This document shows positions 30,240 through 33,129 of a stretch of 64,000 bases of DNA, piece by piece. Each line of letters opens with the position of its first letter. The stretch's first letter is position 1. Location of the stretch: NCBI GenBank assembly GCA_965204745.1, contig OZ242010.1:1568001-1632000 (forward strand). The letters are read 5' to 3'. A program made the translations under genes and the position numbers. Origin of the DNA: Candidatus Latescibacterota bacterium. Its GTDB lineage: Bacteria > Latescibacterota > UBA2968. The notes below the pieces were generated by a model. It ran no database searches. It was given only the letters and a program-made list of their open reading frames with translations, and was not told the origin of the DNA.

Positions 30240-31311
30240 GATGGCCGGCCTCCTCTTCTTCGGGTTCTTCTTCATCGTTCCATTCGAGCAGATTTGCATT
30301 GTCTTTGCGATGCCGCAACGCCACGTACATCAAACACAATCCCGAAGCGTAAGTCGCTTGCACATAAGATATGACGATCCCGGTCACCAAGACGAGCATC
30401 ACCCCCAAAATACCCCCACTCCAGACCTCTGCGCCCGACGGCGTGCCCAGCGCGGGCAAACTGGCGAGCCACAGATCCCATTTTGCGGGTTGGAACAAGA
30501 GATAGTGCGATGCCTCGGAAAAGAGATGGGTCAATTTGACGCCCATAAACAAACCGCACGCCCAAATGATGAGGCCAATCGCGGCCATGGTCAACGCGCC
30601 CATCAGCATCAGGCCAACCCACGCGGAAACAACTGTCCACACCAAGTACAAAACCAATCGCCACGGTTGCGACCACGTCAGGGAAAAGGACTGGATCACG
30701 ACCTCTAAGGTGTCATCCTCCACCGTGCCCACCATCGCTGGGGACAGGATGGACGCGACGACGAAGACCACGCCTGTGAACACGGTCAACAAGGCCGCGA
30801 AGAAGATGGGGATGAAGCACAGCGCGAAGGCCAGTTCCCCCAACGCGGGAATCCACCCGGCGATCCATCCGATGACCATGCCGCCAATGACGACCATGGC
30901 AAAGAGGAAAAGCAGGGTTAGCGGGCCAAACAGCACGGCTTTCCAGTTCGCTTTTGCGAATTGCCATGCATCGCTGCCCGAATAAAAGTCGTCTCCGCGC
31001 AGGTGCTGAAAAGTGATTTTGCACATCATGCTGGTCGTGACAAAGACCACGCCCAAGGCGAACAGCAGGCCCGCGATGTGCAACACTGCGCCCAACAGGT
31101 CAAAGTCGCCGGCTGTCGCGCCGGGAAACAAGCCGTAGCGTTGCCACACCGCGCCGATAGATGCGCCCGTGCGGAGATGCGCGATGAGCAGCAAGACAGC
31201 GTACCCCGCCCAAGCCGCGATCAGTCCCAGCAGTCCAATCCAGATTTTCTTTCCAGACCACCCCAGTCGCACGCAGCGAAACAGGTCTCGAATGTCGAAA
31301 TGTAGAGTCAT
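30217..31311 (-). CDS. Polytopic membrane hypothetical protein
   Basis: ~6-7 hydrophobic helices and an acidic tail; SD aaggag before ATG 31311; overlaps the BpsA-like start. Confidence 0.75.
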   Translation of the reverse strand: MTLHFDIRDLFRCVRLGWSGKKIWIGLLGLIAAWAGYAVLLLIAHLRTGASIGAVWQRYGLFPGATAGDFDLLGAVLHIAGLLFALGVVFVTTSMMCKITFQHLRGDDFYSGSDAWQFAKANWKAVLFGPLTLLFLFAMVVIGGMVIGWIAGWIPALGELAFALCFIPIFFAALLTVFTGVVFVVASILSPAMVGTVEDDTLEVVIQSFSLTWSQPWRLVLYLVWTVVSAWVGLMLMGALTMAAIGLIIWACGLFMGVKLTHLFSEASHYLLFQPAKWDLWLASLPALGTPSGAEVWSGGILGVMLVLVTGIVISYVQATYASGLCLMYVALRHRKDNANLLEWNDEEEPEEEEAGHHADSETA

Positions 31312-31326
31312 GAGATGCTCCTTTTT

Positions 31327-31368
31327 AGGTAAGAGGTGAGACGTAAGAGGTAAGAGGTAAGAGGTAAG
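31327..31368. repeat. (AGGTAAG)n array, 6 units, left of the IS110
   Basis: aggtaag aggtgag acgtaag aggtaag aggtaag aggtaag. Confidence 0.9.
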
Positions 31369-31384
31369 ATACTCTCTTAAAAGG

Positions 31385-32392
31385 TCAAGGGGTTTTCGGG
31401 GTGATTCGATAGAATTTTTCGCCCTCAAAATCTTGGTCATGGCGCAACATGCCCCAGATCGAATGGAGCAACTTTCGCATCACCGCAACGATAGCCTGCA
31501 AAGGTTTCTTGCCGCGGGCGATGAGTTGGTCATAGAAGGCTTTGACATGGCCTTCGTGTCTGATGGCCACCCAGGCAGGCATATAGAGGGCATGGCGGAG
31601 GTACTTATTCCCGGTTTTCGAGATGCGTCTTTGTGGATTGGCGGTTCCGGATTGTTTGGGTTTGGGATCCAGGCCTGCATGTGCGACCCACTGGGGCGGT
31701 TGCATCTCCTCTGGCAAAAGGGTCAACTCGGCCAAGAGCCGCAAGGCACTCGTTTGCGCGATGCCAGGCGTCGAGCAGAGGCGTTGGTAGGCACGCTTGA
31801 GGGGCTCATCGTGCAAAACGAGATCGAGGGCTTGGCTTTCCAAGTATGCAATCCGGCGTTTGAAGTGTCGAATATTCACCTGAATATCGCGTGCGATGAG
31901 ACGTGTGCTGCGGATGTGGTAGCTCTGCGCGTGGTTGCGGCTCTGTTCGCGGATGATCTCCTGCTTGAGTTGGTCAATGCGTCTGGTGAGGGCTTGCAGT
32001 TGAAGCCGTTGCTCGCTCGGCGCTTGCCAAGGCACAAAAGGCATGCGCTCGGCATAGTCGAGGATCAACAACGCATCCTTCGCATCCGTCTTCGCCCGTT
32101 GCATGCAGGCTTGGGCGTACTTGCTCATCGCTTTGGGATTGACGACCATGACCTTTGTGTGGCGATGCCGATGCAAGGCCAAGGCCACCCCCAAACTGTA
32201 AAGCCCGGTCGCTTCGAGGCACACAGAGACCATGTGCCCGCCCTTCGTGAGCCACTTCAGCAACCGCTTATGCGCTTGGGGATCATTGGCAAAGGTCGCT
32301 TGCATGACAGCTTGTCCGGGTCTGGACAGGGCAACGGACAACGTGCGGGCACTGACATCAATGCCGGCAAAAGCGGGGTGAGATTTCGACAT
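31385..32392 (-). CDS. IS110 transposase/recombinase (DEDD RuvC-like + Tnp domain)
   Basis: GIDVS, CLEATG, KTDAKDA (DEDD); AGLDPKPKQSG (catalytic Ser); SKTGNKYLRHALYMPA; SD caggagg. Confidence 0.95.
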   Translation of the reverse strand: MSKSHPAFAGIDVSARTLSVALSRPGQAVMQATFANDPQAHKRLLKWLTKGGHMVSVCLEATGLYSLGVALALHRHRHTKVMVVNPKAMSKYAQACMQRAKTDAKDALLILDYAERMPFVPWQAPSEQRLQLQALTRRIDQLKQEIIREQSRNHAQSYHIRSTRLIARDIQVNIRHFKRRIAYLESQALDLVLHDEPLKRAYQRLCSTPGIAQTSALRLLAELTLLPEEMQPPQWVAHAGLDPKPKQSGTANPQRRISKTGNKYLRHALYMPAWVAIRHEGHVKAFYDQLIARGKKPLQAIVAVMRKLLHSIWGMLRHDQDFEGEKFYRITPKTP

Positions 32393-32466
32393 GGGGGCCT
32401 CCTGTGATGAGGGGGTTGTAAGGGATCTGGTGCGCGCTCGGGGTCGCGTCCCGACCATTGACGCCA

Positions 32467-32645
32467 AGTCTACCGGTCTTGTATATGCAGCCTCAAGGGG
32501 CTTAGATACTCTTCGGCATAGACCCGGCGGTCGGGGGGCCTATCTTACCTACAAGGTCATCGCCTTCAAGAGGGGCCGGCCTTCCCCGAGCCGGGCATCA
32601 AGATGGCTTATCTCGATACGAGGGCGCAACTCCTAATTAACCCTT
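32467..32645 (-). ncRNA. Putative bridge RNA (boundaries approximate)
   Basis: 5' hairpin (32595-32619); target loop with LTG GGCCCCUCU (32569-32577) and RTG AGGUAAG (32544-32550); donor loop with LDG AGAGUAUCU (32504-32512) and RDG AUACAAG (32478-32484), closed by a gucua/uagac stem. Confidence 0.8.
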
Positions 32646-32661
32646 ACTTCCAAGATACAAG

Positions 32662-32759
32662 AGGTAAGAGGTAAGAGGTAAGAGGTAAGAGGTAAGAGGT
32701 AAGAGGTAAGAGGCAAGAGGCAAGAGGTAAGAGGTAAGAGGTAAGAGGTAAGAGGTAAG
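32662..32759. repeat. (AGGTAAG)14 array, right of the IS110
   Basis: 98 nt, 14 units, two of them AGGCAAG. Confidence 0.95.
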
Positions 32760-32901
32760 AGGGCCACCCAACCCGACCACCAAGCGGTTAGCAGTTCGTT
32801 ACCCGATCCTATCCCCATTACCCGGACAGGCCGTGTTCAATCCTTTGAAACCGCGTTCATCCGCGCTTCGGTTTCTTGGTTGTCCTTACACCGCGCACGC
32901 A

Positions 32902-32928
32902 GTAGGGGGCTATAATTATAGCCCCTAC
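32902..32928. repeat. GTAG-type REP-like palindrome
   Basis: gtagggggctataattatagcccctac. Confidence 0.6.
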
Positions 32929-33034
32929 TCACAGCGACGACGAGGGAACTTGACGGAGGTCTTGGAAGCGGCTATCTTGGGCATGACAGGTTCCTGCTGA
33001 GAAAGGGTGCGTTGTTTCGGTGGCAAATATGCCC

Positions 33035-33129
33035 AATCTACGAAGGAGCCTATCTTTTTGCAACTTTGCCCCCTCTGCGCTCGAGATCGCAGATACCGAA
33101 ATCTACGAAGGAGCCTGTCTTTTTGCAAC
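33035..33129. repeat. 30-bp direct repeat x2 with a 35-bp spacer
   Basis: aatctacgaaggagcct(a/g)tctttttgcaac at 33035-33064 and 33100-33129. Confidence 0.85.

Follow-up and report, generated by a model that had tools for sequence, protein, structure and literature searches.

An IS110-group insertion sequence of a Latescibacterota genome, very probably steered by a bridge RNA into junctions of variable heptamer repeats

The window analyzed here is a stretch of 64,000 nucleotides from a Candidatus Latescibacterota bacterium (assembly GCA_965204745.1, contig OZ242010.1, positions 1,568,001 to 1,632,000), and it contains an insertion sequence (IS) lodged in a tandem array of seven-nucleotide units. 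This is very probably an IS110-group insertion sequence of the IS621/ISCro4 type that has been active recently and that a guide RNA steers into the junctions between heptamer units, and the agreement between its guides and the flanks of its copies throughout this genome of 5.48 Mb (G000) is the decisive evidence. The element and its immediate surroundings comprise the following features:

31369-32659, minus strand: body of the IS element, 1291 bp without cores, with left end TGTATCTTGG... and right end ...AAGAGAGTAT
32660-32661, minus strand: left copy of the CT core
31367-31368, minus strand: right copy of the CT core
32662-32762, minus strand: upstream heptamer array of the CTCTTAC type, about 14 units, which supplies the left target and whose last unit before the core is CTTACCT
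31327-31366, minus strand: downstream heptamer array, about 6 units, which supplies the right target TACCT
31385-32392, minus strand: recombinase gene, 335 amino acids from ATG, with DEDD RuvC-like and Tnp domains (open reading frame and domain matches)

On the minus strand the left junction of the window copy reads ...CTTACCT-CT-TGTATCTTGG... and the right junction ...AAGAGAGTAT-CT-TACCTCTTACCT..., that is AGAGTAT-CT-TACCTC, so that both are present as an initial annotation made from the letters alone had described them (...cttacct-CT-tgtatcttgg... and ...agagtat-CT-tacctc...). Tandem Repeats Finder places arrays of period 7 on both sides of the element, at 31327-31369 (6.1 copies) and 32659-32762 (14.9 copies), and deleting the element together with one CT gives, as read from the sequence, ...CTTACCT/CTTACCT... 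with the register kept, which agrees with the earlier claim that excision regenerates an in-register array. The element begins with TGTAT... and finishes with ...GAGTAT, without inverted repeats, and its non-coding ends extend over about 267 nt up to the ATG on the left and 16 nt past the stop codon on the right. When joined, the two ends would read GTATCTT-GTATCTT, a two-unit repeat of 7 nt with TCT in phase with the host units (31369-31375 plus 32650-32659); because the left-end motif is kept in relatives that do not target heptamers, this motif is probably ancestral and no adaptation to the arrays.

The recombinase matches the Pfam families PF01548 (DEDD_Tnp_IS110, E 1.2e-24) and PF02371 (Transposase_20, E 4.8e-20) as well as the NCBIfam model NF033542, 'IS110 family RNA-guided transposase', with 213.8 bits at a cut-off of 140. 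Its only two sequence matches in the PDB are the transposases of ISCro4 (E 7.6e-40) and IS621 (E 5.8e-36). Residues D12, E60, D103, D106 and S248-G249 align opposite D11, E60, D102, D105 and S241-G242 of IS621, the catalytic residues being those named by Hiraizumi et al. 2024 (PMC11208158), and all five (D, E, D, D, and the serine) are thus conserved. The reading frame is intact in nearly all full copies of the element, to which all 57 of the 57 PF01548 matches in this genome belong.

The non-coding left end contains a predicted bridge RNA with two pairs of guides:

32595-32619, minus strand: 5' hairpin, 10 bp including 2 G-U pairs (minimum-free-energy fold)
32533-32587, minus strand: target-binding stem-loop with internal loop (fold, RNAalifold, covariation)
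32464-32527, minus strand: donor-binding stem-loop with internal loop (fold, RNAalifold, covariation)
32569-32576, minus strand: left target guide plus core GCCCCUCU (in the DNA, GGCCCCTCT ending at 32569), same sense as the flank CCCCT-CT
32544-32550, minus strand: right target guide AGGUAAG, reverse complement of CT-TACCT
32504-32512, minus strand: left donor guide plus core AGAGUAUCU (DNA form AGAGTATCT), identical to the right end plus CT
32478-32484, minus strand: right donor guide AUACAAG, reverse complement of CT-TGTAT

In the minimum-free-energy fold of the first 220 nt, the 10-bp hairpin is followed by two stem-loops with large internal loops, the first carrying GCCCCUCU on its 5' side and AGGUAAG on its 3' side, the second AGAGUAUCU on its 5' side and AUACAAG on its 3' side. 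The four guide strings proposed initially (AGAGTATCT, ATACAAG, AGGTAAG and GGCCCCTCT) are all present in the left end, each within an internal loop of the predicted fold, as had been supposed along with the hairpin. For a comparative analysis, 20 left ends were aligned, drawn from six subfamilies of this genome, two same-genus genomes and six distant Latescibacterota genomes whose recombinases are 52-64% identical to the window protein. RNAalifold recovered both stem-loops from this alignment; 95.5% of the cells of the consensus structure were paired over the 20 sequences, versus 31-50% in slid controls, and 9 pairs were changed on both sides versus 4.3 in shuffles, a value that none of 500 shuffles reached. 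Seven of the 13 pairs of the outer helix of the donor stem-loop are changed on both sides.

The donor guides match the ends of the element over 9 of 9 positions (AGAGUAUCU is the same as the final 7 right-end bases followed by CT) and 7 of 7 positions (AUACAAG is the reverse complement of CT with the first 5 left-end bases). When the 266-nt left end was shuffled 200,000 times by mononucleotides, the 9-mer occurred in 117 shuffles, the two 7-mers in 2004 and 2571, and all three together in none; since no shuffle holds both donor guides and the right target guide, the matches are not expected by chance. In one distant genome (G097) the right end now reads GAGAAAAC-CT and the left donor guide GGAAAAC, the two having changed jointly. 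Inspection by eye revealed that the right target guide is followed by the two bases AU in 18 of the 20 sequences and by GU in G097, where the right end has AC in place of AT as its last bases. The base that follows the right donor guide can pair with the last base of the left target in 6 of 9 lineages, forms a wobble in 2 and is mismatched in 1. By this visual comparison, the bases after the right target and right donor guides appear to behave like the handshake guides of IS621.

A blastn search of the genome detected 52 full-length copies of the element, 30 of them at 100% identity, 7 at 99.07-99.92%, 8 at 96.1%, one at 95.7%, one at 94.8% and 5 at 88.5-89.1%; besides internal fragments, there are 15 shortened copies that keep one terminus (10 the left end, 5 the right end). 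All 52 full copies have CT at their junctions, share one orientation and sit amid 3 or more heptamer units; none is found in unrelated sequence, a situation that would have spoken against the earlier proposal. The guides are identical in the 45 copies of at least 96% identity. At positions -5 to -1 of these 45 same-guide copies the flanks have C in 41, C in 41, C in 45, C in 45 and T in 45, and on the other side they have T at +1 in 43, C at +3 in 45, C at +4 in 42 and T at +5 in 44, position +2 being A in 25 copies and G in 18. The resulting flanks, CCCCT-CT-T(A/G)CCT, are those predicted by GCCCCUCU and AGGUAAG, the G opposite U being a wobble pair, and CCCCT-CT, the cognate of the left guide, flanks 41 of the 45. 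Every N5-CT-N5 site of the genome was then scored by its mismatches to the guide prediction and counted as occupied or empty:

Perfect-match sites (CCCCT-CT-TACCT): 20 occupied, 5 empty
Wobble sites (CCCCT-CT-TGCCT): 17 occupied, 65 empty
All other one-mismatch sites: 1 occupied, 154 empty
One-mismatch sites, wobble included: 18 occupied, 219 empty
Two-mismatch sites: 5 occupied, 1125 empty
Three-mismatch sites: 2 occupied, 3142 empty

Most perfect landing sites in this genome are already filled. Judged from these flanks, the preferred site is the CTCCCCT/CTTACCT unit junction, or CTTGCCT by G:U wobble, in variable (CTYNCBT)n arrays. The initial annotation had the element aimed at the heptamer repeat of the host by guides matching that repeat; the heptamer arrays and the right guide (7/7) stand, but the preferred target is a pair of variant units and not homogeneous CTTACCT, and the left guide GCCCCUCU, with CCCCT-CT as its cognate, fits the local flank TACCT-CT at only 5 of 7 positions, the proximal bases matching. 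The window copy, at TACCT-CT-TACCT, is one of 4 copies at this two-mismatch site, of which 83 examples are empty. Half-matched insertion has been reported for IS621 in a 2026 preprint (10.64898/2026.08.31.748434). Such a target may offer safe intergenic sites, as the initial annotation had proposed, but a stop-to-stop open-frame test did not establish this: of the reconstructed empty sites, 39 of 52 were spanned by at least 150 open codons versus 92% of random positions, a result that is uninformative in so G+C-rich a genome.

At one locus (L025, G000:C1:1121594-1124181) two full copies, 100% and 96% identical to the window copy, stand head to tail with just 9 bp between them (T-CT-TACCT-C). 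In a tandem array, neighboring unit junctions are still usable after an insertion, and such leftover sites may explain the short distance. Left-end relics, CTCTTGTATCTT followed by unrelated sequence, were also observed in heptamer arrays near full copies, in the left flank at G000:C1 2713404 and in the right flanks at L035 and L044 of a second genome (G018).

Guides and flanks were also compared across subfamilies of this genome and across genomes, where sister subfamilies carry mutated guides and occupy unit pairs that differ accordingly:

Copy u5: left guide UCCCU-CU, right guide AGGUGAG, flanks TCCCT-CT-CACCT, match 10/10
89% subfamily, four copies: left guide CGCCU-CU, right guide AAGUAAG, flanks C(G/A)CCT-CT-TAC(T/C)T, match 9-10/10
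89% subfamily, copy u8: left guide UGCCU-CU, right guide AAGUAAG, flanks TACCT-CT-TACTT, match 9-10/10
G018 (79% DNA identity, 18 full copies): left guide CUCGCCUCU, right guide UAGGGAG, flanks C(G/A)CCT-CT-CCCGT, in heptamer arrays
G016 (83% DNA identity): left guide AUCC(U/C)C-CU, right guide AGAAAAG, flanks mostly (T/G/C)CC(T/C)C-CT-TTTCT, outside arrays, left match 3-5/5

Different guides with correspondingly different flanks are found in G018 and G016 and in the six distant genomes (G128, G101, G036, G097, G152 and G151), in none of which heptamers are targeted; among these six, flank and right guide agree at 5 of 5 positions in G036, G097, G152 and G151, at 4 of 5 in G101 and at 3-4 of 5 in G128. 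For 15 guide classes the match to their own flanks amounts to 8.6 of 10 non-core positions versus 4.6 of 10 on the flanks of other classes, own flanks are the best match for 12 of the 15, and none of 100,000 permutations reaches the observed sum, a figure that overstates independence because the compared classes are kin. In G036 the left target guide ends with AU and not CU, and 2 of 3 copies (L095, L100) have AT before TGTATC with CT at the right junction; these AT/CT junctions could represent a natural mismatch of the left-guide core versus the donor core.

Besides this kinship of the compared classes, several observations weigh against a bridge RNA that steers the element into heptamer junctions. 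The left guide pairs through only 5 bases plus the core, its two 5'-most bases GG facing CT in 40-43 of the 45 same-guide copies, and in the relatives the left-flank matches of G016 are modest (3-5/5) and the match of the G018 right guide is limited to the core and 3 bases. With its own guides copy u6 agrees at just 7 of 10 positions, but with the guides of u5 at 10 of 10; inspected by eye, it looks like a post-insertion mosaic, because its target-loop region resembles the 89% subfamily and the remainder the 96% subfamily. The stability of the single-sequence fold is unremarkable (z = -1.66, 9 of 200 shuffles folding as well), and when 31000-33100 was compared with Rfam at E up to 10, the five matches were all at chance level and none was to a bridge-RNA family. 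No RNA sequencing run containing the element was found. The circle junction has 0 matches in the assembly, and contigs of four sequencing runs, a form of data from which rare forms drop out, contain neither the circle junction nor an empty-site joint.

A promoter for the bridge RNA can be proposed from two halves at opposite ends of the element:

32652-32657, minus strand: TATCTT, candidate -10 half, completed only in the circle (read from sequence; kept in relatives)
31383-31388, minus strand: TTGACC, candidate -35 half, which overlaps the stop codon and has an 18-nt spacer to TATCTT across the joined ends

This candidate pair fits a split promoter of the IS621 type. Relatives keep a TTGA-type hexamer at 17-nt spacing although the surrounding sequence has diverged, and in the integrated copy no promoter-like site was found upstream of the RNA, the scan giving one chance-level site inside the open reading frame.

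The element appears to have been active recently, because the 30 copies that are 100% identical over 1291 bp have differing sequence beyond the arrays. If the copies were fossils of a past burst and the element immobile, or if assembly polishing had made the copies look identical, then the missing circle and empty-site joints, the mere 5 perfect sites that are still empty, and the shortened and fragmentary copies would find an easy explanation; we consider this unlikely, as the 30 identical copies, the frames that are intact in nearly all full copies and the conserved catalytic residues argue against it, and so does the contig depth in run X1, which over the IS is about 25 times that of the flanks and is consistent with many copies in the sampled population.

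The host repeats themselves form 606 strict arrays (at least 3 CTYNCBT units) with 3383 units in G000, the commonest units being CTTGCCT (692), CTCACCT (561), CTCCCGT (343), CTTACCT (296) and CTCCCCT (246). For a four-unit CTYNCBT pattern the counts are 1566 in G000, 1288 in G018, 70 in G001, 5 in G016 and 0-36 in the other 17 same-genus genomes. The two array-rich genomes, G000 and G018, are also those where the element targets arrays and is most numerous. This association of array and element abundance represents one or two evolutionary events and is no statistic; the suggested link between repeat abundance and spread of the IS is compatible with the data, which for this question comprise just two related genomes.

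From the same association one might suppose that the arrays are a product of the element, left as footprints or by recombinase-driven duplication of units, so that the IS drove their expansion: both genomes with more than a thousand four-unit patterns harbor array-targeting elements, the other 19 same-genus genomes have 0-70, and a period of 7 nt is likewise seen in the junction of the element itself, GTATCTT-GTATCTT. We regard this as very improbable, since the 606 arrays and 3383 units of G000 are accompanied by just 52 IS copies, the same arrays occur at low numbers in genomes where no IS was found, and the known bridge mechanism duplicates nothing beyond the 2-nt core. A second heptamer family, (TGACNAC)n, which is not targeted, has also expanded, with 881 four-unit matches in G000 and 0 in G018 (e.g. 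C1:619290-619373 and C1:902441-902580), and no other IS110-family gene was found in G000 that could account for it; because all PF01548 matches belong to the present element, heptamer expansion also occurs without an IS110 partner. TGACNAC lies within about 45 nt of 66 of the 606 CTYNCBT arrays, with G-rich motifs (such as GGGCGGGGTGG or GGTGGCC) in between, which suggests a larger composite repeat.

That the recombinase protein or the DNA structure of the arrays picks the site, the guide-like strings of the left end being coincidental or merely regulatory, is the least probable explanation and hardly credible: the pyrimidine-rich CTYNCBT context is indeed common to all sites, pairing with the flanks involves only 5+2 and 5+2 bases, and a 2026 preprint (10.64898/2026.03.19.712850) reports a specificity layer beyond base pairing in another IS110 element, but occupancy drops steeply with guide mismatches inside the same repeat context, from 20 of 25 perfect sites to 1 of 155 non-wobble one-mismatch sites, and guide and flank changes go together in 8 or more lineages, the majority of them with targets other than heptamer arrays.

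In IS621, the bridge RNA opens with a 5' stem-loop, and the target loop precedes the donor loop (Durrant et al. 2024, PMC11208160); the 5' sides of the loops pair with the bottom strand and the 3' sides with the top strand, the core being included in all four pairings (PMC11208160). The present element resembles IS621 from E. coli (PMC11208160, PMC11208158) in its two protein domains, its catalytic D-E-D-D-S and its CT core, and in a predicted left-end bridge RNA with 5' hairpin, target loop and then donor loop (PMC11208160); its candidate promoter boxes would likewise be split across the joined ends. With donor and target guides both present in the two-loop RNA, the initial assignment to the IS621-type bridge elements is well founded, and the IS621 donor that it had given as one base away, ACAGTATCTTGTAT (printed in a donor oligonucleotide, PMC13396178), indeed shares 13 of 14 bases with AGAGTAT-CT-TGTAT. 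The two elements differ in that the natural target of IS621 is ATCAGGCCTAC, associated with repetitive extragenic palindromes (REP), whereas the present element targets the junction of variant tandem heptamer units; in that the right guide of IS621 is treated as four bases in a target-motif analysis (PMC11208160) whereas the present one pairs through the core plus 5; and in that the present element has 52 copies in one genome, with guide subfamilies. No DNA-level match was obtained when the element was compared by blastn with 5,426 E. coli genomes. The transposase of ISCro4 (PDB 9t56) is the best sequence match with a solved structure (E 7.6e-40, residues 7-326). ISPpu10 and ISPpu9 from Pseudomonas putida (10.64898/2026.03.19.712850, PMC12288879) are likewise IS110 elements, each with a repeated intergenic sequence of which many copies serve as insertion sites, but their targets, as far as these sources describe them, are REP or a single conserved intergenic sequence and not short tandem repeats of variable units. 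An assignment to the REP-targeting IS110 type (IS621, ISPpu9) was considered and rejected, as all 52 of the 52 copies lie in direct tandem heptamers and CCCCT-CT-TACCT is not palindromic.

A literature search that did not extend to supplementary tables found no report of an IS110 element targeting short tandem repeats, nor one under Latescibacteria insertion sequences; where publications contain both IS110 and 'tandem repeat', the phrase means tandem cargo or IS duplications. Durrant et al. analyzed thousands of natural target-RNA pairs (PMC11208160), and their supplementary tables may already include repeat-targeting elements.

Some features of the window copy concern its neighborhood. Some 15 nt separate the end of the downstream array from the AAGGAG ribosome-binding site and ATG that belong to a membrane-protein-like open reading frame (31311, minus strand), and the copy, located about 56 nt upstream of this gene start and between divergent genes, may influence expression of that gene. 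A contig from run X6 (depth 10.8) skips 1128 element bases, passing from 31348 to 32477 through 10 unrelated letters; its shorter side comprises only 22 letters, and it could be either a deletion derivative of another strain or a chimera.

Transcription, circle formation and RNA-dependent catalysis of the element are inferred from homology with IS621. On this basis, the element would excise as a circle, in which the joined right and left ends would bring the -35 TTGACC and the -10 TATCTT together, and the junction promoter would transcribe a bridge RNA of about 180 nt from the left end. The donor loop would pair with the element's own junction AGAGTAT-CT-TGTAT and the target loop with both strands of the genomic site, whereupon the DEDD/Ser recombinase would exchange strands at the CT core. 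This mechanism is the published bridge-RNA one; what is new lies in the kind of natural target, namely variable heptamer arrays in which guide subfamilies occupy different unit pairs.

The 45 insertions made by one guide pair represent an in vivo specificity profile in which perfect matches are used far more than G:U wobbles and these far more than other mismatches, with distal left-guide mismatches tolerated at about 5% occupancy. Several guide variants on different unit pairs of one repeat family show natural retargeting, and a compact orthologue with documented natural wobble tolerance is of use to engineers. A bolder and rather doubtful reading is that arrays and element form a co-evolving system, in which pairs of adjacent variant units would serve as addresses (CCCCT/TACCT, TCCCT/CACCT and CGCCT/TACTT here, and CGCCT/CCCGT in the sister species), guide mutants would colonize new pairs, copy number would be capped by the cognate pairs, and the recombinase would possibly reshape or expand arrays by exchange between neighboring CT cores. 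If this were true, the co-evolving recombinase would be a natural RNA-guided editor of microsatellites.

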